IMG/VR virus record: IMGVR_UViG_3300035670_000067
Coordinates: 46,385-110,384 of that record
Length of the DNA stretch: 64,000 nucleotides
Source of the DNA: a virus
Reading direction: 5' to 3' (one strand)
Position numbers and translations under genes: made by a program. The notes beneath the pieces are model-generated. The model was not told where the DNA came from. It did no database searches and was given only the letters and a program-made list of their open reading frames with translations. Shown in pieces: positions 14,756-64,000 of the stretch; the stretch's first letter is position 1, and the number at the start of each line of letters is the position of its first letter.

Positions 14756-15127
14756 CTAGTTTTGCTCAAAACCGTCTTCTTTTTGATCAACTTTTTCTGT
14801 TTTCTCTTCGTTTTTTACCTCTTCTTTCGTCGTTTCTTCTGCGATTTCTTCGTCTTTCACAAGCATCGGCTTAGGCATCAAACGTGCTCGGTTGATGCCA
14901 TTTGTCCCCTTTGACTTGCCATATTGTGAAAGACTTTGAATGAATTGTTCCTTGTCAAAACTCTTGTGATTTCCAATTGTGACAATGTCATGATTATCTC
15001 TGACCGCCACGGCTAACGTAGCAAGTAGACCAATCATCTCATCGCGGCTCATAAACCGGACAGCAACTGGAACTTCAACCGAGTTGACAAGAATTTCCTG
15101 ATTACCATCGATCGTCTTAACGAGCAT
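14756..15127 (-). CDS. hypothetical protein
   Basis: 123-aa ORF coupled to the GalE-like gene. Confidence 0.6.
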   Translation of the reverse strand: MLVKTIDGNQEILVNSVEVPVAVRFMSRDEMIGLLATLAVAVRDNHDIVTIGNHKSFDKEQFIQSLSQYGKSKGTNGINRARLMPKPMLVKDEEIAEETTKEEVKNEEKTEKVDQKEDGFEQN

Positions 15128-15968
15128 TTTGATAAAACTCCACTTGTGATTTTATGAGTTCTGTAATGCTTCTCTGTTGCGTGTGAATGGATTTCCATGT
15201 CGGACAGCATTCCAATTTTAATGGATCATACGGTGGGAGCTCCTTATATTGTGGGTTTGCTTGTTTATTTGTGACCAGTTCGACTATCTTCAGGAGATCA
15301 TCTAAAGAGATACTTTGTCCAGTGACATTGGAAATTGTTGATGTCTTACTATCTATCTTTTCAACAATGGCGTCTACGATTTTCAGCACATCAACAAATT
15401 CTCTAATCGGCGAGCGTCCGCGTTTTCTGTAGATCGTCAAGGGTTCTCCATACAGAACATGTCTAATCATCCGCGGAATGATGTGAGTCTCGTTGATGTG
15501 CGCTTCGCCATACTGCCCACTTGCGCCAGTAACATTGAAAAATCTCAAAATATTGTATTTCGTAGAATACCTCTTAACTAGAAGTTCCTGCATCAATTTG
15601 GTCATACCATAGTGGTTTATAGGCTCTAAACGACTTTCTTCCGTTATCATATCTTTTTTATTGCCATAAACTGAACAAGAAGAGGCTAAAATAACCGGGC
15701 AACGGTAACGGGCAAGCAACCGCCGCAGTTCAATTACATTGTTTTCGAAGTATTCATACGGCTTTTCTTCGCCTTCCGAAACGTATGCGTATGATCCTAA
15801 GTGAATAATTAGATCCGGTTGATTGTGGATATCAAGCGAATATGGAATGGTTGGATTCAAATTATAATGCCGTCCGCCGGTGTCGAAGAGCATTAGCTGG
15901 TGATTCTTCAATCTTTCGCAGAGGAACTGTCCGATGTAGCCCTTGTGTCCGATGATAAGAATTTTCAT
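15117..15968 (-). CDS. galE: UDP-glucose 4-epimerase-like (extended SDR)
   Basis: GHKGYIG, SSCSVYG, YGMTK, RFFNV.GA and ETHIIP motifs; start set at MKILII. Confidence 0.8.
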   Translation of the reverse strand: MKILIIGHKGYIGQFLCERLKNHQLMLFDTGGRHYNLNPTIPYSLDIHNQPDLIIHLGSYAYVSEGEEKPYEYFENNVIELRRLLARYRCPVILASSCSVYGNKKDMITEESRLEPINHYGMTKLMQELLVKRYSTKYNILRFFNVTGASGQYGEAHINETHIIPRMIRHVLYGEPLTIYRKRGRSPIREFVDVLKIVDAIVEKIDSKTSTISNVTGQSISLDDLLKIVELVTNKQANPQYKELPPYDPLKLECCPTWKSIHTQQRSITELIKSQVEFYQNAR

Positions 15969-16410
15969 TTTAGGAACCTTTTGTGTTGTGCATTGTGCAT
16001 TGTACAAAGGTAATAACACTGCAAAAAGCCATGTTTGCCGCATAACTGCAAAAAAAACATGCCGTATTGTGCCGTGCCGTATTGCCGCAAAACTGTGTAT
16101 TGTTTCGTTTTTATGAAATCTGTTCTATAGAATTTGGATCTTGAGTCTGTAAATGGAATCAAGTGATCAAAGATTCAGCAGTCTATGAATCATTCATCTG
16201 TAGAATCTTAGATTCAATAGTTTGTTCAGTTCTTATGAGGCGGGTGTGCCCCCCCAACAAAAAGTTGCTATTTGAAAATAAAAGAATTCAAATTATTCTC
16301 CATATATACCCCAGGTAAGGGGCATGGTTGTAGGTTATATGGATATTCAAAATTTCCGGACGTCTTTTTGGAAATCTGGATTTGCAGTGCCACATTGTAC
16401 CGCGCCGTAT

Positions 16411-31566: not shown

Positions 31567-31573
31567 AGAGAAA

Positions 31574-31759: not shown

Positions 31760-31781
31760 ACTAGCTCCTTTCGTTGAGTTT

Positions 31782-31858: not shown

Positions 31859-31861
31859 ATT

Positions 31862-40572: not shown

Positions 40573-40580
40573 GTAATCCT

Positions 40581-40781
40581 TTACTTATCGTTCCACTTGA
40601 ATGTTGGCTGATTCATTGTTTCGTTTTCATACACGACATAACTTGCGTATCCTCTCAACACAGCTTCTCTTCTCGTCTTTTGTAACAAACTATCGAATCT
40701 AAACATCAAAACCACTATAAACGAAAACGCCACAGCTATCGGAACAAGCATGAACCACAATAGAGAATTTTCGCTTTTCAT
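40581..40781 (-). CDS. small membrane protein
   Basis: N-terminal TM segment; AAGGAG RBS. Confidence 0.6.
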   Translation of the reverse strand: MKSENSLLWFMLVPIAVAFSFIVVLMFRFDSLLQKTRREAVLRGYASYVVYENETMNQPTFKWNDK

Positions 40782-40799
40782 TTTTTGCTCCTTTGTGAG

Positions 40800-40876
40800 T
40801 GGCGTCCCCAGCAGGACTTGAACCTGCGACCCGCAGATTAGAAATCTGCTGCTCTATCCAGCTGAGCTATGGGGAC
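40800..40876 (-). tRNA. tRNA-Arg(UCU)
   Basis: gcaga-tt-TCT-aa-tctgc; GCCA. Confidence 0.93.
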
Positions 40877-42852: not shown

Positions 42853-43536
42853 TTAGGACTGTGAACTGGACGAAGACGAACTGAAGCTCTGTGAAGAATA
42901 AGTGCTGGACGAACTTGAAGAAACAGAGAGGCTTGAGCTCGATGAACTTGAGCTCGATGAACTTGAGCTTGATGAACTGTGTTCAGAACTGGAACTTGAC
43001 GAACTGTCACCAGAAGTCGAAGAACTGGATGAACTGGACTGACTGGAGGCAGACTGGCTAGAAACCGAGGTTGAGCTCGAGCTTGAATAGCCACTAGGTT
43101 CGCGCGACGTCGAGCTCGAAGACGAACTTGACGAACTTGACGAACTTGACGACACTGATGCGGCGGTTGACGAACTTGACGATTCCGAAGTAACATCTGT
43201 GCCAAGCGAACTGATAGCGAGACGGCGAGGGCCACCCCATCTGCCAGCTTCCGACATCAGATAGACTTCAGCATACGAGGCCTGATCGACAGCAAAGGCT
43301 ATGACGCCATTGTTGTCAATAGTCAGACCAGCGGTTTTCGCCGTCTGTGAAACGCCAGCGATAGCATTGCCAGTGGTCCGATCAACGCTCTTCAGATAAG
43401 TTGCTGACAGCAACCCAGAAGATCCGTGAAGTAACGCATTGGCGTAAGTATCGTAGACGTTAACGATCTTACCAACTGAACCGGCACCATCAGCTTCAGA
43501 ATGCCCGCAGTTGAGGTATATCAGTTTGAATGCCAT
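42853..43536 (-). CDS. poly-serine-tailed protein (possible virion decoration glycoprotein)
   Basis: N-domain paralogous to 43560..43880; ~110-aa Ser-rich tail; GAGGAGG RBS. Confidence 0.75.
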   Translation of the reverse strand: MAFKLIYLNCGHSEADGAGSVGKIVNVYDTYANALLHGSSGLLSATYLKSVDRTTGNAIAGVSQTAKTAGLTIDNNGVIAFAVDQASYAEVYLMSEAGRWGGPRRLAISSLGTDVTSESSSSSTAASVSSSSSSSSSSSSSSTSREPSGYSSSSSTSVSSQSASSQSSSSSSSTSGDSSSSSSSEHSSSSSSSSSSSSSSSSLSVSSSSSSTYSSQSFSSSSSSSQS

Positions 43537-44881: not shown

Positions 44882-45242
44882 AAAGAATAAAGTAAACTAT
44901 CCGTGGATAAAGCGTGAATATAGTTGTCGTGCTAAGGCGTATATGGCGTTCTTAGTAGACACGCACAATATCAGCGGAACATCTAGATCTACTAAGAAAG
45001 CGTTCAGGAAATTCGTATACCCAAGATTAATTGAAAACTTTCCTGATTTGTTCCGTTTAGTTTCGGAATACTACAGATCCAGAAATCGCTCTATCACTGA
45101 AGAACATTTTATCGAAATAGCGTATGCTAGGATGGTGAACATGTACAACGCCAACCTTACCGTCAAGCGTAAGGAACATCCTCTCAATTCTGGCAACAAA
45201 TGTCTTAGATTAGCTTATCTTGGGCTCAAGAAAGATCTTTAG
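44799..45242 (+). CDS. basic hypothetical protein
   Basis: 147-aa ORF filling the gap between converging genes. Confidence 0.5.
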   Translation: MKSLDQILKLIRKGSKQKKSSVRKKKIEKNKVNYPWIKREYSCRAKAYMAFLVDTHNISGTSRSTKKAFRKFVYPRLIENFPDLFRLVSEYYRSRNRSITEEHFIEIAYARMVNMYNANLTVKRKEHPLNSGNKCLRLAYLGLKKDL

Positions 45243-46238
45243 ATCTAACTCATTTATCTTATTTACGATATTGAGCTGTTCGTCCAAAACGAGAAGAGTT
45301 ATATGTCTATCGGCGAACTCCACGCCTGGGATATATTCTGTGAACACTATTACATAGCGTCCATTTTGAGTTTTTGTAACATACGGATAAGAGCCGCAGA
45401 CTTCTGATAATTGATATATTTTGTCGTTCTTCTTCCTCGCTTCTTCACCAACGGCTCTTATAGATAACTGCTTTCGTGATATACAAGCGTTATACACAAT
45501 CCACGGATCTTCACCAACATTGAACAGACAAACACTTTCTGAATAATTCTTTATGAAATCAAACGGTTTATCGTTTGAACGAACTATTTCGTTTTTCCCA
45601 ATATAACTGATTTCAGTATCTGGCACATCCCAGACTATACTGTTCCACATCGGTCTTAGTGTGAATAAAAGTCCTTGCTTGTGCTGGATTATGGTTGGCT
45701 GTATTGTTTTCACCTTACTGGATCTAAGGATCAACTTCCTGGAAACTTCATAATGATCTTGATTCATCCAATTTGAGTTCGCTTCTAAAATAAATCCACA
45801 CCCAAACCATTCGTCATAAGCTGGAATATACGTAGTTTCTCCAATATGTATCGGCGGATTGCGAACACCCAAATAATTCAGACGATAATTTTCTATTGCC
45901 CCATCCGTATAAGTATCGTTTTCACCTTCACCAAGATCATAGAATAACAGATCTGTATACCGCCATTTGTATCTTGGTGCATACGCCACCGCTTCATCTC
46001 TGAATATGTTACAGGCCAAAATCAAATGATTATTGTGAACAAATAAAATTGGATTCCCAGTACCGTAATTGAAGTGCCACAGGATTTCCATATTCTCCAT
46101 GCTTGGCCATTCAATACGTCCAACAACAACGTGCTGATCTTCTGCGCCTTCGGATGAACCGATATAAAACGCTACATACAGATATTCACCAAATTCGCAA
46201 ACACTTGCGCTATGAGCACCCATCTCGATTTCGTTCAT
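45210..46238 (-). CDS. sialidase-like beta-propeller (BNR_2-type)
   Basis: AHSASV, GNPILF, RNPPI, IQPTI and SYPY motifs. Confidence 0.6.
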   Translation of the reverse strand: MNEIEMGAHSASVCEFGEYLYVAFYIGSSEGAEDQHVVVGRIEWPSMENMEILWHFNYGTGNPILFVHNNHLILACNIFRDEAVAYAPRYKWRYTDLLFYDLGEGENDTYTDGAIENYRLNYLGVRNPPIHIGETTYIPAYDEWFGCGFILEANSNWMNQDHYEVSRKLILRSSKVKTIQPTIIQHKQGLLFTLRPMWNSIVWDVPDTEISYIGKNEIVRSNDKPFDFIKNYSESVCLFNVGEDPWIVYNACISRKQLSIRAVGEEARKKNDKIYQLSEVCGSYPYVTKTQNGRYVIVFTEYIPGVEFADRHITLLVLDEQLNIVNKINELDLKIFLEPKIS

Positions 46239-47080
46239 TGTAGAAAAGACTCCGTTGCAGTTTTCATAAAATCACAATATTGATTGAGCCACCATGAGAT
46301 ATCCGTGACGTTTATTGGAATCTGCTTATAGAATAGATTGATGATTAGGTCGTCAAGCTGATTACTCCAACGTTTGAAGAGACCATTGCTTAGGGCTAAC
46401 GTAGGCTTGCCACACAAATACGCTTCATAAAGTAACGTAGAATTTAAACCTATCACTTCATCACAAAATGAAATGGCTTCTCTAGACGTAATTGAATCTG
46501 CAACACGTATGCGAGGATGAGATCTAACGTTATAACTAAGACATCTTGGGTGAGGTTTTACAAGTAGAAAGCTGCCTGGTCTAATTTCCAAAACATGTTC
46601 AACAAAAACGTTCATATCTTTTATTTCGGAATCCCTCATTATCTGAACATCATCTTCTAGCTGTAATGGAACCAGAACATGATTGCTCTTTGTGTTAGAG
46701 ATTCCTTTTCTATATTTATTCTTCAGTTGAGCCAATTCTTCATATTGTAATTGATTTGGGACAATGTCAAGCTTTTCCATTAAAGAAGACTTAGCACAAA
46801 TGCCACTTCTATCTATATGATAATGTTTATCCTGTGGAAGCCAGCCAACTTCAAGAATAGCATGTGGAATCCTAGCTTCCACAATTCTATTCAGCATTCG
46901 CTCTGTTTGATAACTTGCCCCGTTCCATATAAAGGCAAACTGATATTTCTTAACATCTACACCATCTGGATTCACATCAACATTCCAATCAACCGTACCT
47001 CTCATTTGCATATATTCAAGAAATCTTGGCAACCAGACCGCTCCGTGCCTTTTGCATGGAGTGTAGACTAATATCTTCAT
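46235..47080 (-). CDS. KpsS/KpsC-like capsule biosynthesis glycosyltransferase
   Basis: LEVGWLP, LVPLQLEDD.QI, VKPHP, NST..YEA.L.GKP. Confidence 0.75.
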   Translation of the reverse strand: MKILVYTPCKRHGAVWLPRFLEYMQMRGTVDWNVDVNPDGVDVKKYQFAFIWNGASYQTERMLNRIVEARIPHAILEVGWLPQDKHYHIDRSGICAKSSLMEKLDIVPNQLQYEELAQLKNKYRKGISNTKSNHVLVPLQLEDDVQIMRDSEIKDMNVFVEHVLEIRPGSFLLVKPHPRCLSYNVRSHPRIRVADSITSREAISFCDEVIGLNSTLLYEAYLCGKPTLALSNGLFKRWSNQLDDLIINLFYKQIPINVTDISWWLNQYCDFMKTATESFLQ

Positions 47081-47607
47081 TGTTCTCTCAACGCTATAAA
47101 TGAAGTGTCTTGATCATCATGCGTACATGATTGGATGTCCATAAAGATTCCTCTGTCCGCCAAGTGTTGAACCAACGCATGGAAAGCATCCGGCAATATC
47201 CGCCAACAGTCTATCGGATATCTGTGTATTCCTCTTTTATGGGGAACAGTGATAAACAGAATGCCACCGACATCAACAGTTCTGCACAAGGATTCAAACA
47301 ATATCCATGGATATCTGCAATGCTCCAATGTTTGATGACACATGACAACATCGGCACAATCTATTCCGATATCATGCTTGTCCCATATGGCGTCTATGAA
47401 ACGCTTATCCAAGACGATATCAACACCCTTGCCAGCTTGGATATCTACACCGATATATTTGAATTTTTCAACTGGAAAAAGATCTCGCAAGTTGCCATTA
47501 ACATCCAAACTTCCAACTTCAACCACAGTTGACTTAACGTCAGAATTCCAATATTCTAGATATTTGCGAACAAAATCTTTAGTCCAATTTCTTATAGCGT
47601 CATGCAT
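47077..47607 (-). CDS. class I SAM methyltransferase
   Basis: EVGSLDVNG, YIGVDI..GKGVD, LEH, HRYPIDCWR. Confidence 0.85.
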   Translation of the reverse strand: MHDAIRNWTKDFVRKYLEYWNSDVKSTVVEVGSLDVNGNLRDLFPVEKFKYIGVDIQAGKGVDIVLDKRFIDAIWDKHDIGIDCADVVMCHQTLEHCRYPWILFESLCRTVDVGGILFITVPHKRGIHRYPIDCWRILPDAFHALVQHLADRGIFMDIQSCTHDDQDTSFIALREQ

Positions 47608-47609
47608 GG

Positions 47610-47903
47610 CTACTCCACAGGTTCTAGAAAGATGTCACCATCTTTCATGGTGAAATCATATTGCGGCAAATCTTCGATATCATCAGTCCCAGTTAGAACA
47701 AAACATTCAGAAACTCCAATCATATTGAATTTATTATTAGATGTTTCCAATAATCCTATTGGATGGAATACTTGATATAGCGCGGAAGCTATATACCAAT
47801 TCTTACGATCTAACAAAATATCTGCCGGTATCCAAACCTTCCCTGCCGGCACCGCCATTCCGTCATCGTCCGGAATAATATTTTCAAATGGGAAATCAAT
47901 CAT
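47610..47903 (-). CDS. hypothetical protein
   Basis: Coupled ORF. Confidence 0.55.
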   Translation of the reverse strand: MIDFPFENIIPDDDGMAVPAGKVWIPADILLDRKNWYIASALYQVFHPIGLLETSNNKFNMIGVSECFVLTGTDDIEDLPQYDFTMKDGDIFLEPVE

Positions 47904-48514
47904 ATATCCAACCTATTCGGCATCTTACCCCAGATTTGAAGATATCTTTTTCTATCATTTTCCCATATCCACTTTTTATCTCTATTTGATTTTGAATAAC
48001 CGTAATGATAAACTTGACTACGATTGTGTTGTAAGATCTTTTTATTCAATCCCATCACGCGCATCAACAAATCCCAATCAGCATATGCCACCTTGAAGGA
48101 TTCATCAAATTTGCCAATATCTTCGAACAAACTTTTCCTAATAAAAAACATATTGCATGGCATAAGTTTCTTTTCAGTAAATTCTTCGTTACCTTCAACA
48201 GGAGTACTTTGATTCGTCGAAACAGGAAACACCAACCCAACATCTTCTTCAAACGTTTTCTCAGCCATTCTATTCATATCGACATGAACATCTATATCAA
48301 AATCCATGAAACACAATATCTCGCGTTGCGCTTGATTTGCTAATCTATTCCTAACGATTGGCAGATTTACTTTAGATATCGTATTATCAAATGTAATCCA
48401 TTCACCACCAGAATCTATAACGTAAGAATGTAATTGAAAATGTAAGGTCTTATAGCGCTCTCTTTCTGCGGCTATATTATAGTATTGAACAATGATAAAA
48501 CTAATTGGCACCAT
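47900..48514 (-). CDS. glycosyltransferase family 2
   Basis: RN..A.QA..E.LCFMDFD, FDESF...ADWDL..R, YH. Confidence 0.75.
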   Translation of the reverse strand: MVPISFIIVQYYNIAAERERYKTLHFQLHSYVIDSGGEWITFDNTISKVNLPIVRNRLANQAQREILCFMDFDIDVHVDMNRMAEKTFEEDVGLVFPVSTNQSTPVEGNEEFTEKKLMPCNMFFIRKSLFEDIGKFDESFKVAYADWDLLMRVMGLNKKILQHNRSQVYHYGYSKSNRDKKWIWENDRKRYLQIWGKMPNRLDI

Positions 48515-48524: not shown

Positions 48525-48908
48525 CTACTTAAATCTTAGAAAGTGATAATCGTCCCAGTTAAATTCTTCGTCAAACGAAGTGAATAAGCTTCTATCATCT
48601 ATATAAATGTCTGCGAATATTTTACGCGGATACCATTCGTATTTGAGATGTCCATCTCTACAATTTTCATTTATTGAATCAAATGTCAGTCCTTGTGTCT
48701 TACAGAATTCCACTGCCGAATCTAACAATTTTCTATCGGAAGTGTTTTCTCTGCATGTCCACAATACAATCTTATCACCAACACTACGTCTTGCAATAAG
48801 CCAATCAAATAGCTTCTTGTTTGGAATATATGTAGATATATCGTCGCTCAATTTTCCATATGGAACTTCCTTGATAAGTGTTCCATCAAAATCTACTGCG
48901 ATTATCAT
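48525..48908 (-). CDS. HAD-superfamily phosphatase-like protein
   Basis: IIAVDFDGT, LWTCR, RK.FADIYIDDR. Confidence 0.8.
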   Translation of the reverse strand: MIIAVDFDGTLIKEVPYGKLSDDISTYIPNKKLFDWLIARRSVGDKIVLWTCRENTSDRKLLDSAVEFCKTQGLTFDSINENCRDGHLKYEWYPRKIFADIYIDDRSLFTSFDEEFNWDDYHFLRFK

Positions 48909-49756
48909 TTCAGTATTTCTTTCAGCTTTTTCAGATCTTCTGTAAACAGCTTTCGCTTATCTGGTTTATTCATGTTGAGTGGACTGGGATGCAATAGCGG
49001 AAATACTTTGCCATATTCTGTTTCGTAAACTTTACCGTGACAATCTGTTATTGTGCGGTCATTGCCAAGCAAAGCCTTCAATGCGAAATTGCCAAGAGTC
49101 ACTATGATCCTTGGCTTCATTATCTCAATTTCTTGTTTTAGATATGCGAAACAATTTTTGATCTCTGATGGAACTGGCGCTCGATTGCCTTCCGTAAAGC
49201 ATTTCACCACGTTCGTAACATAAAGCTCTTTCCGCGGCACTCCAACATGCTCTTCAAACATTTGATCAAAGAACTGGCCAGAACGACCAACAAACGGTCG
49301 CCTGATTTTAGTTTCTTCCTTGCCAGGATTCTGACCAACAATCATAATCTTGGCCCTTACACGCATACTACTAAAAACGTTTCCAGGATATCCTTCTACG
49401 AATTGTCCACCGATATTGCATTTCTTGCAACTGAGACATGAGGCTTTTACCCTTTTCAACATATGCTTTCTATACAGATTTTCCTGAGGCTTCATGGAGC
49501 AGTCATCCATATCTATCCAGTGGAATTTTCCATCTATTGGACTATTGAGGAGAAACCATGTCCGGACCACATCTACAGGTTGAACAGGTTGTTTATCTTC
49601 CATCTCCATTTTATATTGTTCATCATCTTCATCCTCGTGAATATATGTCACATTTGGATCCGGCTTTATCTGCCCTAAATGCTCAACATCTATTTTGTAA
49701 ACAGGATAAAATTTATCCTTTAGGAACCACTCGCTATTCGTTACTTTGACTTCCAT
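48905..49756 (-). CDS. uracil-DNA glycosylase family 4 with N-terminal extension
   Basis: C..CKKC, VGQNPG..E, PFVG.SG, TNVVKC, LHPSP. Confidence 0.88.
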   Translation of the reverse strand: MEVKVTNSEWFLKDKFYPVYKIDVEHLGQIKPDPNVTYIHEDEDDEQYKMEMEDKQPVQPVDVVRTWFLLNSPIDGKFHWIDMDDCSMKPQENLYRKHMLKRVKASCLSCKKCNIGGQFVEGYPGNVFSSMRVRAKIMIVGQNPGKEETKIRRPFVGRSGQFFDQMFEEHVGVPRKELYVTNVVKCFTEGNRAPVPSEIKNCFAYLKQEIEIMKPRIIVTLGNFALKALLGNDRTITDCHGKVYETEYGKVFPLLHPSPLNMNKPDKRKLFTEDLKKLKEILK

Positions 49757-50773: not shown

Positions 50774-51052
50774 TCACTTACTATAGAATTCCTTTTCCCG
50801 CTTTTCTGCATCTCTTCTGGCTAAATGCTTAAGTCTATTTCTTTCAGCGTTTGCCCAGTATGAATCTGGCTTATTGCTGATATCACCCATCCCTTCAGCA
50901 AATGTGAAAAACATTCTGTCAGCGATGATTCGTTTTGTTGTTTTGGCGTGACATCTTGTGCATTGAGGCTTGAAAATATCTCTATTTTCCATGGAAACAT
51001 TGTGCCAATCGAATTTATTCCCACACTCTAAACAACGATAAGTGTACGTCAT
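50774..51052 (-). CDS. FmdB-like zinc ribbon protein
   Basis: YTYRCLECG..F...CTRC. Confidence 0.7.
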   Translation of the reverse strand: MTYTYRCLECGNKFDWHNVSMENRDIFKPQCTRCHAKTTKRIIADRMFFTFAEGMGDISNKPDSYWANAERNRLKHLARRDAEKREKEFYSK

Positions 51053-52797: not shown

Positions 52798-53013
52798 TTA
52801 TCCTCTGTGTTCCTCTTTGCATTGTTCTATGGCACTGAATCCGCATTCAAATCCCGAATCATAAGCTTGATTTAACAAATCACAGAAATTGTCTGCTTCC
52901 AATTTTTGATGCGATTCAAATATCATAATGCGCTTTCCAAGCATTTCAATCACCCATCTATCATCTGGAACACCCAATACCACTAAGCGTTCCACAGAAT
53001 ATGTTTTACCCAT
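52798..53013 (-). CDS. hypothetical protein
   Basis: Operon ORF. Confidence 0.5.
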   Translation of the reverse strand: MGKTYSVERLVVLGVPDDRWVIEMLGKRIMIFESHQKLEADNFCDLLNQAYDSGFECGFSAIEQCKEEHRG

Positions 53014-53016
53014 TTT

Positions 53017-53223
53017 CTATGATCCTTCCTGTTTGCTTGGTGTCGTTGTCTCGGAAGTCAGTAATGCTCTTAACAAGTTCAGCTGTTTTTCTGACAACTT
53101 AATGCGATGCCCTTCTTCATATTCATACTGTTGTCCGCATTTGCTACACATCCAATCAAGGTATGACTGTACAATATTTTCAGCACCACAAACATCACAG
53201 TTGATCTTCATAACAATGTCCAT
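53017..53223 (-). CDS. zinc-ribbon protein
   Basis: CDVC...CSKC; start approximate. Confidence 0.5.
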   Translation of the reverse strand: MDIVMKINCDVCGAENIVQSYLDWMCSKCGQQYEYEEGHRIKLSEKQLNLLRALLTSETTTPSKQEGS

Positions 53224-53471
53224 CCTATCGGATTTGCTGGCGGTGTCACGGCACGGTATAGCGGCCAGCACACACGTTCAAACCAAAGAGTGTATGGTCC
53301 ATAACACGACCCAGAGTCATCATAGCGAGCGAATGTAGCTGAAGCGCAGAAGCCAACACCCCACCCATGCCACCAAACAAACAACGTCCGCAGTTCAACA
53401 ACCGCACAGAACCAACTTCGGATAACGTTCTCAATGTTATTCATGATCTTTATCATCGCGGAAACTCCAAG

Positions 53472-53690
53472 TTACGGTGGACCGATATGCCGATCATCAC
53501 CGCCTTCAATCTCTCGCATGGCAGCACATAGACGCTCTTGCTCCGCCCGCCACTCTGCGGCTTCGACGCGTTCAAGACGGTCGTCTTCGTCTGCCTTGGC
53601 TAGGTCGCGATAACTCCGTGTCCTGTGCGACCACCGCTTGCCTTTGCGCGGATACGCACTCTCGTCCGGTTCCCGATAATCGTCACTCAT
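53472..53690 (-). CDS. hypothetical protein
   Basis: ATGA coupling; AAGGAG RBS. Confidence 0.55.
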   Translation of the reverse strand: MSDDYREPDESAYPRKGKRWSHRTRSYRDLAKADEDDRLERVEAAEWRAEQERLCAAMREIEGGDDRHIGPP

Positions 53691-53896
53691 CGCGGGGACT
53701 CCTTTGGAGATAGCTTATTGTCGGACGATGAAATCATTTTCATGTATACGCTGATTTCTTCCTCGCACACATCGCACAGCCGGCCAATCGGCAGCTTCAT
53801 GGCGCGAGCATCTTTCTTGCCCAGCCGGCATTGGTGTCTGTTTCCCAAAGCCATCCGCAAGATCATACGCACACGGTGTTTTTCAGCGCGTGTCAA
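53687..53896 (-). CDS. hypothetical protein
   Basis: Coupled ORF. Confidence 0.5.
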   Translation of the reverse strand: MTRAEKHRVRMILRMALGNRHQCRLGKKDARAMKLPIGRLCDVCEEEISVYMKMISSSDNKLSPKESPR

Positions 53897-54174
53897 TTCT
53901 CACCTCTCTTCACCTTCCAGTTTTGGAACGCTGGATCATTCATGCAGTATCCGTATAGACCGGGGACAACGTTCTTAATGAACCACTGCACGTCTATCTG
54001 CACTGGATCTACGCGCTCAACATATCTTGCCGGTTGCGGAACTGCCAATCGCAGACGAGACGGCAATTTGGAAAAGTCAAGATCGACAATCATCCCTCCC
54101 TCTTCCACAGAGGCGCGGATTCTTTTCGCTAACTGATACGCGATTTCACGAATAACTGTTTCATTGTCGAGCAT
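53893..54174 (-). CDS. hypothetical protein
   Basis: Coupled ORF. Confidence 0.55.
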   Translation of the reverse strand: MLDNETVIREIAYQLAKRIRASVEEGGMIVDLDFSKLPSRLRLAVPQPARYVERVDPVQIDVQWFIKNVVPGLYGYCMNDPAFQNWKVKRGEN

Positions 54175-54349
54175 ATATTCTACTTCTGCTCTTCAATCCC
54201 GCGAACCCGGTATGATTGAATATCGTAATATCCGCCATTCATATTAGTCTTTTTGTCTGCATATTTACGAGCAGCTTCTTCGGTTGCGAACACCGCTTCA
54301 ACAACAAATTCTCCGCCTGTACTGTGCGACACGACCCAGACAGTTTGAA

Positions 54350-54544
54350 TCATTTGTTATTTCCCCTTTGCTGCTTCGCGAATTGTTCAGACAATCGATC
54401 AATCTTTAAGCCCTGCCGAAATTGTTTATTCAAGTGTTTCAGTCTGGCTCTTGCGTGATTTATTTCCATTACAACTTCTATACGATTCAATCTATTACCT
54501 TCATTAATGGCCAAGATAACTTCTTCATACGTAACTTTTTTCAT
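54350..54544 (-). CDS. hypothetical protein
   Basis: AAGGA RBS. Confidence 0.5.
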   Translation of the reverse strand: MKKVTYEEVILAINEGNRLNRIEVVMEINHARARLKHLNKQFRQGLKIDRLSEQFAKQQRGNNK

Positions 54545-54565: not shown

Positions 54566-55279
54566 TTACAGTGACATATCGTAATAACCACTCCTGACAC
54601 CGCGCCTTCCAGATCTCAATTCAGATTGGCATTTGTCTTTCCATTCCTGATAGCCAAGATCGTTTTCGACTGGGTGAGTCACATAATTCTTGGTATCTAC
54701 ATAAACCGGGATGTTCTTAGACATGGCAGCATTCCACAATGACGCTTCGTTGCCGCCATATAATGATCCTGTAGCAAACATGCCAAGCTCAATAAATAAT
54801 GAAGTACGTATGGTTAACCCTGCCCCAGCTACGCCGCGCAAGCAAGTTCTAAACACTTTGTAATGTTCCATTTCTTCAAAGATTGAATGTATTTTTTCGT
54901 AACAGTGACACCTATTGGTAAATTGTTCTGGAACGACAATGGCTTTGTGATTTATTGCGAAATCAAACAGATCTCTCAAAGTTCCCCTATGTACAAGTAT
55001 GTCAGCGTCAGACACACAGGCAACTGATTCAATATCTTCTTTCAGCAAAACTCCCATCATTGTATTAACGCCAACGGCCTTCCCGACATTCTTACCAAAT
55101 GTGAAGACTCTAGTGAAATCACATCTTTCTAACGTTACTCTTGTGTTCAAATCGTTTGGACTATTGTTCCAAATCCAAACCTCATCTACTTCATCCAGCG
55201 AATGTTTCAGCGTTTCAAGCGATTGACGCAATGAATCTGCTTTATAGTAAGTTGCGAACATATAGACTTTTTTCATCAC
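54566..55279 (-). CDS. glycosyltransferase family 2-like
   Basis: WNNS, NVGKAVGVN, VSDAD, YGGNE; coupled to upstream MTase. Confidence 0.7.
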   Translation of the reverse strand: MMKKVYMFATYYKADSLRQSLETLKHSLDEVDEVWIWNNSPNDLNTRVTLERCDFTRVFTFGKNVGKAVGVNTMMGVLLKEDIESVACVSDADILVHRGTLRDLFDFAINHKAIVVPEQFTNRCHCYEKIHSIFEEMEHYKVFRTCLRGVAGAGLTIRTSLFIELGMFATGSLYGGNEASLWNAAMSKNIPVYVDTKNYVTHPVENDLGYQEWKDKCQSELRSGRRGVRSGYYDMSL

Positions 55280-55953
55280 CAGTTTCCCTTACAGTACCAA
55301 TCTTTTCTTTCTTCTGAGCCACCAGTCCTGATCCTGGGCACTCGCTTAGTTAACCAACACACCCATTCATTAGAAATGGCTTCTATCGGGCATTGATAAG
55401 TCAATACGTAGGGGACTTCCAGCTTCTTAATCCATTTAGTGAATGTTTTGATGTTTAGATCTTCGACACCATAATTCCCGTCGGTGCCCAAATAAGGCGG
55501 ATCAATAAACAGAAAATCTCCGTCTTTCTGTTTATACGTCCTGTAAGACCCGTGTATAAATTTCCAATTATGAATTTTACGCATAGCGATTTTTGTATCT
55601 TCTACAGGCAACCTATGCTGCGGATATATCATCCAAGATGATAACTGACCAACATAAATTCCAGCCAAATTCACTCGAAGATAATCGCGCGCTTCTTCTC
55701 TTATACTAAGCGTCTTGACACTGATCTTATCTCCTTCGTAAACACGCAAACCATCTAAATCGGGCATAGTCCTCAACCATCTCAACATAGATATCAGGCT
55801 TTTGTTCAGATCTATACACAAAGCTGAATAATCGTACTGTAGTGAAAACGCGCACGAACCACAAAACGGCTCAACTATCCTTTTAGTTCCCTTGGGGAAT
55901 TGAATGCTTGGAAATTTTGCTTTATTCCCAGAATATTTGAATAGCCTATACAT
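55276..55953 (-). CDS. Dam-like DNA adenine methyltransferase (alpha class)
   Basis: FKYSGNK, EPFCGS, FIDPPY. Confidence 0.8.
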   Translation of the reverse strand: MYRLFKYSGNKAKFPSIQFPKGTKRIVEPFCGSCAFSLQYDYSALCIDLNKSLISMLRWLRTMPDLDGLRVYEGDKISVKTLSIREEARDYLRVNLAGIYVGQLSSWMIYPQHRLPVEDTKIAMRKIHNWKFIHGSYRTYKQKDGDFLFIDPPYLGTDGNYGVEDLNIKTFTKWIKKLEVPYVLTYQCPIEAISNEWVCWLTKRVPRIRTGGSEERKDWYCKGNW

Positions 55954-57094
55954 TCAGCATCTCCACAGAAACCCTTTCATACGAAGCGTTGTCTTTCAGC
56001 GCATTGTGTCGTATCCAATAATAGGCAGCCAACTTCATATCTGTATTGCGCAGATTTCTGAATACATTCTTATATTCGCTGTAGAATTGTATTGGATCCA
56101 TTTTCTTGGCCGCAGCATATATCGCCATATAATACAGATCTTCACCCATCACATTTCTAGAAAAAGAAGTGCGCAATCTGTTAAGATTACAATCTAAATC
56201 TTCTTCCCATAGAGATTGCACATACTTTACGAACCGCTTTGCTTCGCTGATATTGTAATAACAGTCATCGCCAATAAATGGTTCATATGTATTTACCGGA
56301 ATGCAATAATGCGGCACATTCGCCATCAAAATCTTTTTGAGCCTATCCTTCATATTTTCATAAACATGAAGAGAACCGGCGAAATGATAATAGCGACCGA
56401 CACCCACCCCCAAGATGCGCGACAGCATACCCTGAATGAAAGAAAATTCAAACACATTGATTTGTGAAAATCCAAACAGTAAATCGTTCGATCTCATAGT
56501 AACGAAGCAATCAAGCTTGCCGTTATTGATCTTATATTGAATGTAACCAGTGCAAGGATAATCCAAACTATCTCCAGCACGACAATCCTTTGCCGGATCC
56601 CAAATTGACATCACCGCCCGCTTACTGGTCGGATCCGCTTTCAGCGTTTCACAAACATATTGTATTTGATCAACGCTTTTCAAATTCGTAACTGCGTAAT
56701 TTTCTACTGCCCTATTTTCAATGGCGCTAGCCTTATAGAATCTGCTGTATTCAACATCGCTTAACCCATAGGAACGACGCAGCCTTGGCCCATAGCCCGC
56801 CCGCCATTGCACCCCGTCATCAGCATATTGCGGCGCTCTAGGTAAGAAGTGCTTTAGAACTGAAACATCTCTATCTCCACTAAGAACCCATATAGTTTCA
56901 AACAAAGAAGCAAATGGATTTCCATGTCTTTCCACCACAAGCGGAATGCGATATGGCCCAACGATTTGAATCATCATTGGTGAAACTTCAAAGATATAAT
57001 TGGCTGATGCTCCAACTCTTTTTACCTCGACCCTTTCACCATGAACGTCTATCATCTCCACTGCCCACAAAAACGCTTGTGTCATGTCAATCAT
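55946..57094 (-). CDS. thymidylate synthase-family dUMP hydroxymethylase
   Basis: YGPRL, DQI, D.PC, MRSNDLLFGFSQINVFEF (Asn is dUMP-type), GSLHVY; hmdU-kinase context. Confidence 0.8.
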   Translation of the reverse strand: MIDMTQAFLWAVEMIDVHGERVEVKRVGASANYIFEVSPMMIQIVGPYRIPLVVERHGNPFASLFETIWVLSGDRDVSVLKHFLPRAPQYADDGVQWRAGYGPRLRRSYGLSDVEYSRFYKASAIENRAVENYAVTNLKSVDQIQYVCETLKADPTSKRAVMSIWDPAKDCRAGDSLDYPCTGYIQYKINNGKLDCFVTMRSNDLLFGFSQINVFEFSFIQGMLSRILGVGVGRYYHFAGSLHVYENMKDRLKKILMANVPHYCIPVNTYEPFIGDDCYYNISEAKRFVKYVQSLWEEDLDCNLNRLRTSFSRNVMGEDLYYMAIYAAAKKMDPIQFYSEYKNVFRNLRNTDMKLAAYYWIRHNALKDNASYERVSVEMLNV

Positions 57095-57816
57095 TATTGA
57101 TTCCTTTCATGTCTGTTAGCTACATCTGCCCAATCGTTATTTTCAGTTACCGAACCTGCATATTCAATAACCGGCGGCTTTTTGAGATCTTCGAATTTAT
57201 ATGTACTGGCCAGATTTTCTATGAAGTTCTTAATCTTAAGCTGCCAATCGGTTCTCATTTTACTATTGAAAAAGTAAACATCAGCATGTGATCTTATTAT
57301 CGGATAAAACGATTCGGACTTATGCCGCGACGCTTCGTTTGTACTTCTTGGATCATCCGTATCTATGAAAACCAAAGTAAATCCATTATTCTTTACATAT
57401 TCTAATTCTGCAGGACGCCTTACATCCTTAATGCAGAACCCAAGCCTAACCGCTCCAAGTTCTTGCATTGTTTCGCGCAAACGAATGAACTCTTCTTGCA
57501 CTGAATCAACAAACACTCCGGGATAGATTTCTGGCAACATATCAAATGCCTGCCACACCATGCGCGGAGTATATTGCACCTTCGTTTCTGGATTAGTGTA
57601 AACTATCCTCGTCTCTTTCTCTGAACTTTCGTAATCAAACTGCATAAATCCAAATATGGATTTAACTATTTTCTTGAGCTGATCGCTAAAGCTAGCCACA
57701 GTAAAGCAATATTCCATTTCAAGCGTGTCTGTGACAGTGTCCTTACCTGAATATTTTGGACCACTGAATGCCAATTTCGTTACAGATATAACATTTTCTT
57801 CACCCATTGTGCACAC
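57094..57816 (-). CDS. deoxynucleoside monophosphate kinase
   Basis: SGPKYSGKDT P-loop, FSD.LK, TPR, DVR...E, H.SE. Confidence 0.85.
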   Translation of the reverse strand: MCTMGEENVISVTKLAFSGPKYSGKDTVTDTLEMEYCFTVASFSDQLKKIVKSIFGFMQFDYESSEKETRIVYTNPETKVQYTPRMVWQAFDMLPEIYPGVFVDSVQEEFIRLRETMQELGAVRLGFCIKDVRRPAELEYVKNNGFTLVFIDTDDPRSTNEASRHKSESFYPIIRSHADVYFFNSKMRTDWQLKIKNFIENLASTYKFEDLKKPPVIEYAGSVTENNDWADVANRHERNQ

Positions 57817-58837
57817 CTAGGATCTTTGCGACATGCAGCATGTTCGCAGGTTTGTTGTATTTATTGAATGTCCACTGAGCGGGTTTCCAGCTAACATCTC
57901 TATTCGCGTCTATGCTTCTAGCCCATCCGTCTCTGGACATATATCTATTACGAGGCCGCCCGCGATCCTCATAAGCTTTCATGTATTTGCTAAACTCACA
58001 AAGACAATTTTCCAAGGACATTACAGTAAGATAAGGATACGGCTGATCCTCAAATGTTTTCAGAAAATCTACATCGTAAAGTCTAGAATTCTTTAACTGA
58101 TTATTACGCAACCAATAATTCAACTCTTCGTATCCATTATCTTCTATGGTCTTTTCGGTAAACAACTCATGCAGTCCGCGTTTAGCCCCCGGTCCATCAA
58201 TAACAAAGTCATCTTCTCCAAACTTAGTACGATCTGAATAGCTTAAATCTACTGCAATCTGATATCCTAAGAACGGCCCTATCCCCTGAATGCTACGCAG
58301 ATAATAGTAGCATTCTTCCATTGATTTGTCGAACGCGTCACGTAAACAGCCAGACTTTTCATCATCATTGAGCTGATCGGTTATTTGCCCAAGCAACAAA
58401 GAAATTCTTGTAATCTTATCCATACCAAATCCGAACATACTGTACCCGCTGACAGTAAACGCATTGGTGAAAACATTTTCATTAGCTGATAAATTCAATA
58501 GTCTTAATCGCAACCCTTCTTGATCATATTTTCTGTAATCTGGCATATGGCCATGATACAGAAATGTCTCTATCTTGTTGAACAATCTGTATAAGACATG
58601 ATTAAAGAAGAACGAAGCATCATCAACATATTCTTGCTTCTGCAACCATTCTGTCACAAATCTAGTGCCGCGGTCTAATTCGCGGAAGATATTGGTGAAT
58701 TTGAAATCTGCTAATATTGGATCTTTAGTCCAAGGTGGTGGAAGGTTTTGTAGTTCTTTTCTTTTGTATATTTCGTGTCGTTCTGCTATGAATTTCCAAA
58801 ACAAACCCATATTTTCTTTATAATAGAATACTGACAT
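57800..58837 (-). CDS. 5-hmdU DNA kinase, helical domain (aGPT-Pplase1-like)
   Basis: ERH.IY.R, PPPWTKDPIL..FKFTN.FRELDR, YRLFN..ET, GPGA.RGL, EN.LCEF.KY. Confidence 0.85.
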   Translation of the reverse strand: MSVFYYKENMGLFWKFIAERHEIYKRKELQNLPPPWTKDPILADFKFTNIFRELDRGTRFVTEWLQKQEYVDDASFFFNHVLYRLFNKIETFLYHGHMPDYRKYDQEGLRLRLLNLSANENVFTNAFTVSGYSMFGFGMDKITRISLLLGQITDQLNDDEKSGCLRDAFDKSMEECYYYLRSIQGIGPFLGYQIAVDLSYSDRTKFGEDDFVIDGPGAKRGLHELFTEKTIEDNGYEELNYWLRNNQLKNSRLYDVDFLKTFEDQPYPYLTVMSLENCLCEFSKYMKAYEDRGRPRNRYMSRDGWARSIDANRDVSWKPAQWTFNKYNKPANMLHVAKILGVHNG

Positions 58838-58840
58838 AAA

Positions 58841-59302
58841 CTATTTCCACCAATGAGGAGTTTCTCTTTTTGTCCAAACAGCCAGATGCCTTTTGCATTC
58901 TATCATATATTGTCTATTCGACTTTATTGGCTCCAACTTTTCATAACCAGATTGAGTTAAGAAATACAATTTTCCATCAGGTAATTCTAGCGGATGTTCT
59001 TCTACCCATTCAAGAATCCTGCCGCAACTATGTTCGTTGCCATATCTGTAGTAATGTTCAGCAAATATGCACCAGCCTAGCCTAAGCGCGAACTTAAAAT
59101 TTTCGCTATTTTCATAAACCCATCTTTGAACACGTATATTCATGCGCTTATCTAATTCTCTGTACGGCATATCACCATCATATCCATTCCGGTGATATGC
59201 CGTACAAAGCAACTGAGCAATTTCTAGCAGAATCTTCATGTGCCTGTCCATGTAGTATTCGGCACACTTGCGAGGATTCTTGTCTAGAAAGAAAATATTC
59301 AT
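58841..59302 (-). CDS. pyrimidine dimer DNA glycosylase/endonuclease V-like protein
   Basis: MNIFFLD..P..CA...D.H.K..LE.AQLL; W.KR..P.W. Confidence 0.75.
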   Translation of the reverse strand: MNIFFLDKNPRKCAEYYMDRHMKILLEIAQLLCTAYHRNGYDGDMPYRELDKRMNIRVQRWVYENSENFKFALRLGWCIFAEHYYRYGNEHSCGRILEWVEEHPLELPDGKLYFLTQSGYEKLEPIKSNRQYMIECKRHLAVWTKRETPHWWK

Positions 59303-59859
59303 CGGGTCACAGATTTAGATTTGAAATCTACTATATCAACCGATATACTATCTATTTTCAATCTCTTACACACCCTTTCGACTGTTCTGCTACCAGCGCA
59401 TGGATCGTAAACAATCCCACGACCCGGCCAATGATTTCTTATAAGCCTTTCAATAAGACTTTCTGGTTTTTTCCAAGCATGTTCATCATTTCTAAATAGC
59501 CGGTCAGTAAAAATTCCAGTTCTATTACTCCAATGCAATTGTTCTGTAAATGATAATCCATAACACGCCATTACTTCTATAAAACGACTGTATCGTTTTA
59601 TGGTATTCTTTGTTGATTCTGGCTTTATCCAGTGCAGCAGTTGTTCCGGCTTAAATGGTAAATTCCAAACATCATCGGGCCACATGAAAATGATTGAAGG
59701 AATATCCTTTTCAACAGCCATGGAAACCAGATCACGCACATCTTCACTACCATACACAGGATCTGCTATCATCAAAGTGACTTCTTTAGTGGGCAGATTA
59801 TCCTGCCAACGTCCAAGAAAAAACACGTTATTAGCAATTCGCTTCATATCGCATTCCAA
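59299..59859 (-). CDS. beta-class N6/N4 DNA methyltransferase-like (DPVY variant)
   Basis: ADPVY, W.K, H...KP..L, VYDPCAGS. Confidence 0.7.
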   Translation of the reverse strand: MECDMKRIANNVFFLGRWQDNLPTKEVTLMIADPVYGSEDVRDLVSMAVEKDIPSIIFMWPDDVWNLPFKPEQLLHWIKPESTKNTIKRYSRFIEVMACYGLSFTEQLHWSNRTGIFTDRLFRNDEHAWKKPESLIERLIRNHWPGRGIVYDPCAGSRTVERVCKRLKIDSISVDIVDFKSKSVTR

Positions 59860-63861: not shown

Positions 63862-63937
63862 CCCCGTAGAAATAAAAAAAAACCCCGCCCCCAGCATTGG
63901 CTACCGAGGGCAGGGTGTGACCGCTTACTACGGTCTT

Positions 63938-64000
63938 TTACTCTTCGTCATCGTCATCGTCATCTTCGTCGTCGGCGTTGGCGTCATCAGCCTCTTCGAC
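63938..64000 (-). CDS. partial CDS: acidic C-terminal tail
   Basis: ...VEEADDANADDEDDDDDDEE* followed by a terminator-like hairpin. Confidence 0.6.
   Translation of the reverse strand, partial: VEEADDANADDEDDDDDDEE

Follow-up and report, generated by a model that had tools for sequence, protein, structure and literature searches.

What might replace thymidine in the DNA of an uncultured phage whose putative hydroxymethyluracil (hmU) operon ends in a glycosyltransferase gene? This question is raised by positions 54566-59859 of the window, the whole stretch of 64,000 nt that was analysed. The seven abutting or overlapping genes of the original prediction exist, with the coordinates and order it gave: seven minus-strand ORFs fill the locus exactly, with gaps of ≤8 nt or overlaps of 1-17 nt between them (Table 1). 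Judged from sequence, the arrangement is not due to chance, because the order PF18723, kinase, thymidylate synthase (TS)-like and GT2 is seen again in independent contigs from metagenomes, at 30-54% identity. The order ligase, PF18723, TS-like hydroxymethylase and GT2, with or without the kinase, is found whole or in part in nine metagenomic relatives (L029-L033, L035, L036, L050 and L107), and a GT2 homologue directly follows the TS-like gene in four (L029, L030, L031 and L036) of the five contigs that reach that far. A gene of ~440 aa occupies the same position in L031, L032 and L036, the L032 copy, which was scanned, encoding a UDP-glucose dehydrogenase. Neither DNA methyltransferase has a counterpart in the relatives (the beta-class enzyme lacks a homologue in their loci and the Dam-like enzyme is absent from them) and the DenV-like protein is specific to this phage; all three are best explained as lineage-specific additions to a DNA-modification island. 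The DenV-like protein has no Pfam match at 0.01; in a protein atlas it falls among Pyr_excise clusters, with a feature score of 0.94 and a TM of 0.92 for structure.

The two ends of the contig overlap by 132 nt, which makes it circularly closed and the genome, of ~110.25 kb, complete. A six-frame profile search of the whole closed genome detected neither a clade-2 amino acid:DNA transferase (AADT; PF18724) nor a P-loop 5-hmdU DNA kinase (PF18748), and our own diverse AADT and HMUDK profiles had no match in it. The lack of a canonical AADT, originally noted for the locus, thus holds for the entire genome, and the reservation that this enzyme might lie outside the window is largely settled. In addition, a Pfam scan of 65 of the phage's own ORFs revealed no tailoring enzyme of the PLP, radical-SAM or FAD kind. 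Because the hmU operon adjoins a base-transferase-like enzyme and glycosyltransferases, yet both enzymes known to decorate hmU are absent, the DNA base that this phage makes is probably an undescribed one, which possibly carries a sugar. We tentatively favour further modification of hmU DNA by an AADT-independent route, probably through addition of a sugar; dUTPase and dCMP deaminase were searched for and neither was found in the phage, which counts against this reading.

Table 1. Coordinates of the features discussed, numbered from the first letter of the window
Feature	Position	Strand	Details
Terminal overlap, last ~133 nt of the contig repeating its first 132 nt	63869..64000		118 nt exact; 1-nt difference in A-run
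N6/N4 DNA methyltransferase-like, small beta-class, 186 aa	59299..59859	-	PF01555 1.7e-09; motifs ADPVY, DPCAGS
DenV/pyrimidine-dimer-glycosylase-like protein, 153 aa	58841..59302	-	phrog_624 1.4e-25
PF18723 "HMUDK_hel" protein, candidate base-flipping group transferase	57800..58837	-	209 bits
T4 Dnk-like dNMP kinase, 240 aa	57094..57816	-	P-loop GPKYSGKD; PF21448 27.7 bits (cut-off 27.1); phrog_139 3.7e-23
dUMP hydroxymethylase-like TS superfamily protein, 382 aa	55946..57094	-	Thymidylat_synt 8e-24
D12-class Dam-like N6-adenine DNA methyltransferase, 225 aa	55276..55953	-	PF02086 4.4e-11; phrog_56; motifs FCGSCA, DPPY
GT2, soluble GT-A fold, 237 aa	54566..55279	-	DxD = D91-A-D93; PF00535 31 bits
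Second GT-A-like protein, 434 aa	51049..52353	-	Glyco_transf_7C 2e-06; weak DUF6492
Free-standing UDG-superfamily protein	48905..49756	-	PF03167 6.7e-37
Block: GT2_2-like GT, SAM methyltransferase, KpsS/Capsule_synth-like transferase, BNR propeller	45210..48514	-	
Poly-Ser protein	42853..43536		
NAD-dependent sugar epimerase/dehydratase	15117..16043	-	PF01370 1.4e-32

The GT2 gene, the sole PF00535 match of the genome, shares 4 nt with the Dam-like gene; the expected GT-A glycosyltransferase is translationally coupled to the hydroxymethylase and Dam-like genes of the operon, in a position conserved in relatives. Its modelled structure has a GT-A fold nearest to the ppGalNAc-Ts and TarP. Either hmU in DNA or a serine-rich protein may be its acceptor, which is not deducible from family membership, and it accompanies PF18723 in 2 of 11 complete genomes and is thus not a general partner; both points count against a sugar on hmU. 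Counted in favour is a report, in the available text of a preprint, that phage GT-A enzymes glycosylate 5hmC in DNA and often lie beside ThyS-like genes (bioRxiv 10.1101/2023.12.21.572611). The 434-aa GT-A-like protein shares 34% identity with L030:4656-5843, located directly after the GT2 homologue of that contig. The epimerase is the sole nucleotide-sugar enzyme family found in the genome among the families searched, and is 29% identical to an RmlB-like gene adjoining the TS-like gene of G021, a related complete phage with 44 genes in common. The four-gene block may or may not be part of the DNA pathway.

Four proteins of this genome consist of 29-46% Ser, the densest 40-residue window holding 35 Ser, and additional GT-like genes stand among its virion genes; the target of GT2 may therefore be protein instead of DNA, an option that the original prediction omitted. 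On this account, the main alternative, which we consider possible but rather unlikely, the DNA contains hmU, possibly changed by PF18723 in a way that adds no sugar, GT2 and the other glycosyltransferases O-glycosylate poly-serine neck and tail proteins, and the operon position reflects only early co-expression. The location of one poly-Ser gene just downstream of the four-gene block is in keeping with this, as are the closest structural neighbours of GT2, which are protein and teichoic-acid glycosyltransferases, and its nearest G021 homologue (24% identity), which lies within the structural module and is counted against a sugar on hmU. However, the 4-nt overlap and the placement of GT2 directly after the hydroxymethylase gene in four relatives argue against it. 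In G021, moreover, a large glycan cluster encloses PF18723, an enzyme of DNA-glycosylase fold, whereas a search for Ser-rich frames returned no more than one, a short one, and the homologue of the poly-Ser neck protein has no Ser tail. PF18723 is located there within a UDP-sugar dehydrogenase/GT1/GT1 operon, RmlB/C/D-like genes adjoin the TS-like gene, and neither PF18724 nor PF18748 was found.

The gene first labelled a 5-hmdU DNA kinase does not encode one: its product matches PF18723 rather than PF18748 and contains no P-loop or Walker A motif. PF18723 is the former clade 1 of the aGPT-Pplases, the type of M6 gp55 and ViI gp160, and we know of no biochemical function for it. The AF2 model (pLDDT 89.9) has a helix-hairpin-helix (HhH) fold, with the AADT gp46/PUGT (8z2n) as its best PDB match (Z 10.6 over 228 residues). 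E276 and C280, invariant in PF18723, lie 85-95 residues past the HhH motif, a spacing equal to that of the catalytic Cys247 of gp46. The protein is thus an HhH paralogue of AADT that keeps the E-x3-C catalytic motif, although hhalign links the PF18723 profile to AADT weakly (probability 5-7%) and other HhH enzymes score almost as high for fold (Z 9-10). A TS-like gene accompanies PF18723 in 19 of 20 viral records, including all 11 complete ones, of which few contain PF18724 (three) or PF18748 (two); the family therefore works with hmU, independently of AADT or kinase. The named cultured carriers among the matches listed are M6-, PaMx11- and ViI-like thymidine-hypermodifying phages.

The only kinase of the operon is of the T4 Dnk type. 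In a second alternative, which we regard as improbable, the known pathway is present in cryptic form: the Dnk-like kinase, or a second activity of it, phosphorylates hmdU in DNA and PF18723 is a true AADT that adds an amine or amino acid, yielding a ViI- or M6-type base with no sugar. The PF18723 and kinase genes overlap and their adjacency is kept in relatives, the AADT catalytic motif is retained, and Pfam names PF18723 the helical domain of 5-hmdU DNA kinase. This name, together with the extra C-terminal part of SP10 gp186, a C-terminal deletion of which (the kinase domain alone) was assayed by Lee et al. 2021 (PMC8989533), hints at kinase-PF18723 fusions. However, alignment of the Dnk-like kinase with PF18748-type kinases is limited to the P-loop, no such kinase occurs in L035, G021 or most other PF18723 phages, and the 65 scanned ORFs lack the tailoring enzymes mentioned above.

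The TS-like protein, by its sequence features, looks like a dUMP hydroxymethylase. In the PDB it is matched best by the CMP hydroxymethylase MilA (5e-25, true TS reaching 1e-15), its top full-length phage matches are Yuavirus HMases, and TS equivalog models, whose cut-offs are 108-576 bits, score it at ≤77 bits. Its invariant residues include Cys181 and Asn213, the latter being the uracil-reading Asn that is Asp in cytosine-specific MilA, and a C-terminal extension is common to this protein and the M6-type dUMP HMase. Pfam and PHROG names say "thymidylate synthase" only, but an ordinary thymidylate synthase or dCMP hydroxymethylase, without hmU and within a generic nucleotide-metabolism/methylation island or a T4-like hmC-glucose system, is very improbable given Asn213, the greater proximity to hydroxymethylases than to TS, the scores far under the equivalog cut-offs, the shared extension and the tight linkage to PF18723. 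The original prediction therefore holds for the hydroxymethylase route, the missing canonical AADT and the coupled GT-A glycosyltransferase, but not for the activation of hmdU by hydroxymethylase plus kinase, as its presumed DNA kinase is the AADT paralogue.

In the route that we tentatively favour, thymidine would be replaced, fully or partly, by 5-hydroxymethyl-deoxyuridine, which would be modified without the known DNA kinase or AADT. Family membership and active-site residues suggest that, before replication, the TS-like enzyme would convert dUMP to hmdUMP and the Dnk-like kinase, presumably, hmdUMP to hmdUDP, with the remaining steps to DNA falling to NDP kinase from the host and to the phage's own DnaE-type polymerase. 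In the replicated DNA, the PF18723 enzyme may flip out hmdU and activate the C5-methylene through Cys280. GT2 could add a sugar to a group installed by PF18723 or, as happens in base J, directly to the hydroxymethyl, and the 434-aa GT-A-like protein may lengthen it.

In the kinetoplastids, base J is produced by oxidation of T by a JBP dioxygenase, followed by the action of a GT-A glucosyltransferase, JGT. The phage system would resemble it in having hmU in DNA and a GT-A fold glycosyltransferase as candidate modifier, the latter a likeness of fold class. Unlike in base J synthesis, hmU here would arise before replication via a TS-like enzyme and not by oxidation of T, and a PF18723 enzyme, to which base J has nothing similar, is present. 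Phage hmC glycosylation, by the T4 alpha/beta-GT or the GT-A/GT-B enzymes of 5mYOX/ThyS clusters, likewise pairs a TS-like enzyme making a hydroxymethyl-pyrimidine with an adjoining phage glycosyltransferase, and TarP is a near structural neighbour of both GT2 and the cluster enzymes; however, Asn213 indicates that the base here would be uracil rather than cytosine, the R...DDD...EDY/F motif set of the cluster GT-A enzymes was not recognised in GT2, and the available text describes no link to PF18723 (bioRxiv 10.1101/2023.12.21.572611).

As in SP-15, YerA41 and Carin-5, to judge from the accessible portions of their descriptions, several glycosyltransferases lie beside replication genes, and relatives of this phage possess UDP-glucose dehydrogenase. 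A UDG-like module such as is fused to the polymerases of that group is also present, as a free-standing protein that is 36-38% identical to the N-termini of the polymerases from SPO1 (gp31), CP-51, SP-10 and phiLo. The polymerase itself is a split DnaE here and PolA in that group, no protein similar to its KDO-transferase-like glycosyltransferase was found in this phage, its oligosaccharide-bearing thymidines have a C-C linked pentyl linker on the base, and those portions do not mention PF18723 (PMC5977210, PMC9023294, PMC12686479).

Thymidine hypermodification in M6, PaMx11, ViI, PhiW-14 and SH-Ab 15599 employs a dUMP HMase, a P-loop 5-HMUDK, a clade-2 aGPT-Pplase/AADT and tailoring enzymes (PMC8989533, PMC11472151, PMC13458397). 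Clade 1 provides the only family member of this phage, whereas the M6 reaction reconstituted by Lee et al. 2021 did without it, gp55 being dispensable (PMC8989533). In common with the M6/ViI group, a TS-like dUMP hydroxymethylase is clustered with a clade-1 PF18723 gene whose product shares the HhH fold and E-x3-C motif; unlike that group, this phage possesses, in place of PF18748, PF18724 and PLP, radical-SAM or FAD tailoring genes, a set of glycosyltransferases.

The interval 54566-59859 holds exactly seven minus-strand ORFs, separated by gaps of no more than 8 nt or overlapping by 1-17 nt. The seven-gene operon of the original prediction is therefore a real feature, and its core is conserved in relatives. 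As family guesses, six of the seven labels first attached to these genes hold, because they are borne out by Pfam and PHROGs families and by placement in the atlas (see table); the exception is ORF 3, the supposed 5-hydroxymethyl-deoxyuridine (hmdU) DNA kinase. The DenV-like protein of ORF 2 lacks a Pfam match at E<=0.01, its atlas neighbours being Pyr_excise (DenV) clusters (feature score 0.94, TM 0.92), and PF03013 is present in 13-48% of the members of the nearest of these. The Pfam scan covered 65 of the 167 ORFs called in the phage, most of the others being virion genes or short early ORFs. Neither a megablast search of 50,697 phage records with the operon nor a viral-contig scan with a single protein returned a match.

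Features of the phage genome. Positions are those of the window unless marked otherwise; L002 is a locus handle of this phage, with genome coordinates
Feature	Position	Strand	Length (aa)	Family or match
ORF 1		-	186	N6_N4 MTase-like (Pfam/PHROGs)
ORF 2		-	153	no Pfam match; phrog_624
ORF 3	57800-58837	-	345	PF18723 "HMUDK_hel", 209.4 bits
ORF 4 (Dnk-like kinase)	57094-57816	-	240	weak DNMK match; phrog_139 (dNMP kinase)
ORF 5 (TS-like)	55946-57094	-	382	Thymidylat_synt
ORF 6		-	225	D12 Dam-like MTase
ORF 7 (GT2)	54566-55279	-	237	Glycos_transf_2
Eight abutting ORFs between GT2 and the 434-aa GT	52798-54544	-	57-93	
GT-A-like protein	51049-52353	-	434	
UDG-superfamily protein	48905-49756			
GT/MTase/KpsS-like/BNR block	45210-48514	-		
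Ser-rich protein	42853-43536			
Ser-rich protein	genome 27094-31992			
Ser-rich protein	genome 40929-43070			
Ser-rich protein	genome 43345-44058			
tmRNA/tRNA regions	30200-31938, 40485-40876			
tmRNA	30379-30719	-		
O-methyltransferase and two YdcK beta-solenoid/hexapeptide-like proteins	38058-38657, 28697-29179, 39529-40239			Methyltransf_24/3 (O-methyltransferase)
Split DnaE-type Pol III alpha	L002:11264-15955		876 and 374	

The PF18723 model covers the product of ORF 3 over positions 5-274 of 281, far above its cut-off of 25 bits, and the translation contains no GxxxxGK[ST] Walker A P-loop. In the M6-like phage Aergia, a PF18723 gene matching the 345-aa protein (28% identity, E 2e-26) adjoins a separate gene for a 187-aa P-loop protein, which matches PF18748 "5-hmdU DNA kinase" and is the M6-type orthologue of the proven kinase; a ViI-like record also holds a gene matching the 345-aa protein. 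The proven 5-hmdU DNA kinases are listed as P-loop proteins by Lee et al. 2021 (PMC8989533), in whose work gp54 and gp51 sufficed for making the M6 product, with gp55 left out. Because of these M6- and ViI-like matches, and because the proven kinases are P-loop proteins, PF18723 is, as judged from sequence, the former clade 1 of the aGPT-Pplases and not the P-loop kinase family, and the kinase label for this gene is withdrawn. The Pfam name "5-hmdU DNA kinase, helical domain" is thus an annotation trap, since it is applied to stand-alone proteins without a kinase domain and readers label a non-kinase as a kinase; one GenBank record or more still carries the older name "pyrophosphorylase clade 1". 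The model phages ViI and M6 both encode clade-1 aGPT-Pplases, for which we know of no demonstrated activity or role.

The AlphaFold model of the PF18723 protein (pLDDT 89.9) gives it an HhH glycosylase-like fold of the type seen in gp46/PUGT, an amino-acid:DNA transferase (AADT; PF18724, clade 2 of the aGPT-Pplases). This enzyme is the best PDB match (8z2n_B; Foldseek probability 0.91; VIA-align Z 10.6 over 228 residues, rmsd 4.2), with DUF2419 and Ogg-type glycosylases close behind at Z 9-10. The HhH motif of the PF18723 protein is GIGPFLGYQIA (residues 185-195), and neither E276 nor C280 varies among 20 homologues. In AADTs an E-[TS]-x-x-C motif, containing the catalytic Cys247 of gp46 and the nearby E243, lies 85-95 residues from the HhH, and in sequence spacing E276/C280 stand at the same distance. 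The Glu/Cys motif was recovered by regular expression in 56 of 89 family members, and global alignment of PF18723 with AADT brings the HhH and E-x3-C motifs of the two into register. Profile comparison by hhalign gave a weak probability of 5-7% against both one AADT and five diverse AADTs; an iterative HMM seeded with M6 was not broad enough to recover diverse AADTs, and neither the PF18723 profile nor the kinase had a match in PDB sequence searches. Complex prediction for the PF18723 protein and the Dnk-like kinase scored 0.02, a value that says nothing about whether the two bind.

The product of ORF 5 belongs to the thymidylate synthase (TS) superfamily (PF00303, 8e-24) and matches the CMP hydroxymethylase MilA (5e-25) better than it does any thymidylate synthase (1e-15). 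Against the NCBI TS equivalogs (cut-offs 108-576 bits) it scores at most 77 bits, its best full-length phage matches are the Yuavirus hydroxymethylases, and the M6-type dUMP hydroxymethylase has the same C-terminal extension (TDMKLA..YW). Both Cys181 and Asn213 are invariant, the column of the latter being occupied by Asp in MilA. The protein combines the predicted TS fold and catalytic Cys with a putative uracil-reading Asn (Asp in cytosine enzymes), the features by which a dUMP hydroxymethylase is recognized. Its proximity to MilA, the sub-cut-off equivalog scores and the extension in common with the M6-type enzyme point indirectly to a hydroxymethyl rather than a methyl product. The 240-aa kinase carries a T4 Dnk-type P-loop, GPKYSGKD (GxxxxGKD), and matches phrog_139 at 3.7e-23 and PF21448 marginally (27.7 against a cut-off of 27.1); its alignment with PF18748 proteins is confined to the P-loop.

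The window makes up the right-hand 64 kb of an IMG/VR contig that measures 110,384 nt and is flagged as linear and 76% complete. The last ~133 nt of this contig (window 63869-64000) repeat genome positions 1-132, with 118 nt exact and a 1-nt difference in an A-run, and the genes at the two contig ends are neighbours in relatives. Because the ends overlap by ~132 nt, the genome is closed at ~110.25 kb, and the CheckV label "76% complete, linear" was rejected; within the overlap a T-run comes after a GC-rich hairpin. Six-frame segments of the closed genome gave no match at E<=1 to PF18724, whose model recovered an M6-type AADT at 1.3e-46 as a positive control, or to PF18748. A self-built profile of diverse AADTs and a four-sequence HMUDK profile also found nothing in the genome, and the closed genome has no second PF18723 paralogue. 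The earlier observation that no amino acid:DNA transferase was in view, for which a full-genome HMM search had been proposed, accordingly extends to the whole genome, and the reservation that such a transferase may lie outside the window largely falls away. Six-frame searches for a dUTPase, dCMP deaminase, GT1, NTP_transferase and CMP-KDO synthetase found none in the closed genome; one sugar epimerase/dehydratase gene is present, at 15117-16043 of the window.

A census of viral records holding PF18723 comprised 20 records, 11 of them complete genomes. A TS-like gene accompanies PF18723 in 19 of the 20, including every complete genome; among the complete genomes PF18724 occurs in three (eight being without it), PF18748 in two and PF00535 in two. 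PF18723 and the TS-like gene therefore form the constant pair, to which the AADT, kinase and GT2 are optional partners, and as PF18724 is missing from eight of the 11 complete genomes in this small census, thymidine modification that is independent of AADT may be the more frequent case. Metagenomes are the sole source of homologues at 40-57% identity to the PF18723 protein. The gene order ligase, PF18723, (Dnk-like kinase), TS-like is found in part or whole in nine metagenomic contigs (L029-L033, L035, L036, L050, L107), and a GT2 homologue directly follows the TS-like gene in four of the five that reach past it. In L030 this homologue is succeeded by one of the 434-aa GT-A-like protein, in L032 methyltransferase-like genes replace GT2 after the TS-like gene, and in L031 a dUTPase gene lies between the PF18723 and kinase genes; the relatives' loci lack the DenV-like gene and both MTase genes. 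Between homologues of the two end genes of our contig, L031, L032 and L036 carry a ~440-aa gene, the L032 copy of which, the sole copy scanned, encodes a UDP-glucose dehydrogenase.

A related complete phage, G021 (109,578 nt, with terminal repeats), has 44 genes in common with this phage at a median identity of 36%. Its PF18723 protein keeps an E-x-x-L-C-E motif and is encoded in an operon with the order unknown gene, PF18723, UDP-sugar dehydrogenase, GT1, GT1, adjoined by genes for a GT2, a GT1, FkbM-, TylF- and SAM-methyltransferases, a HAD phosphatase and a sulfotransferase. Between its exonuclease and TS-like genes stand RmlD-, RmlC- and RmlB-like genes. The TS-like gene itself (L120:6563-8848 in the G021 locus) is a 761-aa ORF with TS-domain halves more than 1 kb apart, which may contain an intein or inserted domain. 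A Dnk-like kinase was searched for in G021 and not found. In searches for clades 1 and 2, clade 1 was the sole superfamily member found in this genome and in G021, both of which gave no PF18748 or PF18724; in both, PF18723 is linked to a TS-like gene, a candidate dUMP hydroxymethylase, and to sugar enzymes. With clade 1 alone beside these genes in two complete genomes, three or four recombinant proteins, together with hmdU DNA made by PCR, would allow its function to be tested directly, and the phage is a good entry point to the function of clade-1 aGPT-Pplases.

GT2 (PF00535, 31.4 bits) has invariant D91-x-D93 and N64-x-GKA motifs and is modelled (pLDDT 75.7) with a GT-A fold that matches GT-A enzymes at E ~1e-10. 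Its nearest structures, ppGalNAc-transferases and the phage WTA transferase TarP, do not indicate the acceptor, and it is gene context that bears on hmU or hmC in DNA in that role; tblastn found no GT2 homologue in the 50,697 phage records, and a word-based homologue search gave the query alone. A serious rival to DNA as acceptor is that the glycosyltransferases, GT2 included, build a coat on serine-rich virion proteins. Four proteins with 29-46% Ser, reaching 35 Ser per 40-residue window, were confirmed and are candidate O-glycan acceptors that bear directly on GT function. One of them, that at 42853-43536, is encoded just downstream of the GT/MTase/KpsS-like/BNR block, which may well serve protein glycosylation, and in G021 the homologue closest to GT2 (24% identity) is encoded in a structural module. 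G021, however, has at most one short Ser-rich frame and yet a larger glycan cluster, with PF18723 inside it. The KpsS-like protein showed no similarity to the KDO-transferase-like GT of YerA41 and Carin-5. The original interpretation thus survives in part: the putative 5-hydroxymethyl-uracil (hmU) cluster is real and conserved, whilst its "kinase" is a non-kinase and probable AADT paralogue, and its GT gains a serious rival acceptor.

Several other features of the genome were recorded. Longer plus-strand ORFs opposite the eight short ORFs beside GT2 are probably spurious, and the free-standing UDG-superfamily protein adjoins the primase gene. The tmRNA has the tag AKPVLSFPAPVALAA, and seven tRNAs (Thr, Leu, Ile, Glu, Lys, Ser, Arg) are all on the minus strand. 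An extra O-methyltransferase and the two YdcK-like proteins are encoded among small early genes. Left of the window, the Pol III alpha gene is split into a part with PHP, NTPase and finger domains and a weak Hint match at its C-terminus (876 aa) and a part with HHH_6 and OB domains (374 aa), with a plus-strand ORF between them. The arrangement may reflect what is left of an intein or homing element, or else a polymerase that is truly split.

For DNA as the acceptor, a pathway can be proposed in which every chemical step is drawn from family membership and motifs. The TS-like enzyme would convert dUMP to hmdUMP and the Dnk-like kinase hmdUMP to hmdUDP; hmdU would then be incorporated into DNA, where PF18723 would flip the base and attack C6 through Cys280, and GT2, perhaps with the 434-aa GT, would add the sugar. 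Phage GT-A enzymes glycosylate 5hmC, and the pairing of GT-A with ThyS is frequent (10.1101/2023.12.21.572611); glycosyl-hmU in phage DNA is anticipated in the literature, in which we found no demonstration of it. It is conceivable, although we consider it rather unlikely, that PF18723 enzymes constitute a second class of DNA C5-methylene transferases, independent of the known kinase on hmdU, which in this phage lineage pass the base to GTs or put a sugar, sugar acid or polyol on it themselves. The resulting thymidine analogue would carry a glycan and would arise by a route other than those of base J, T4-type glucosylation and the AADT pathway. The base J system employs a JBP/TET-type thymine dioxygenase, whereas here the hmU would be accounted for by the TS-like gene.
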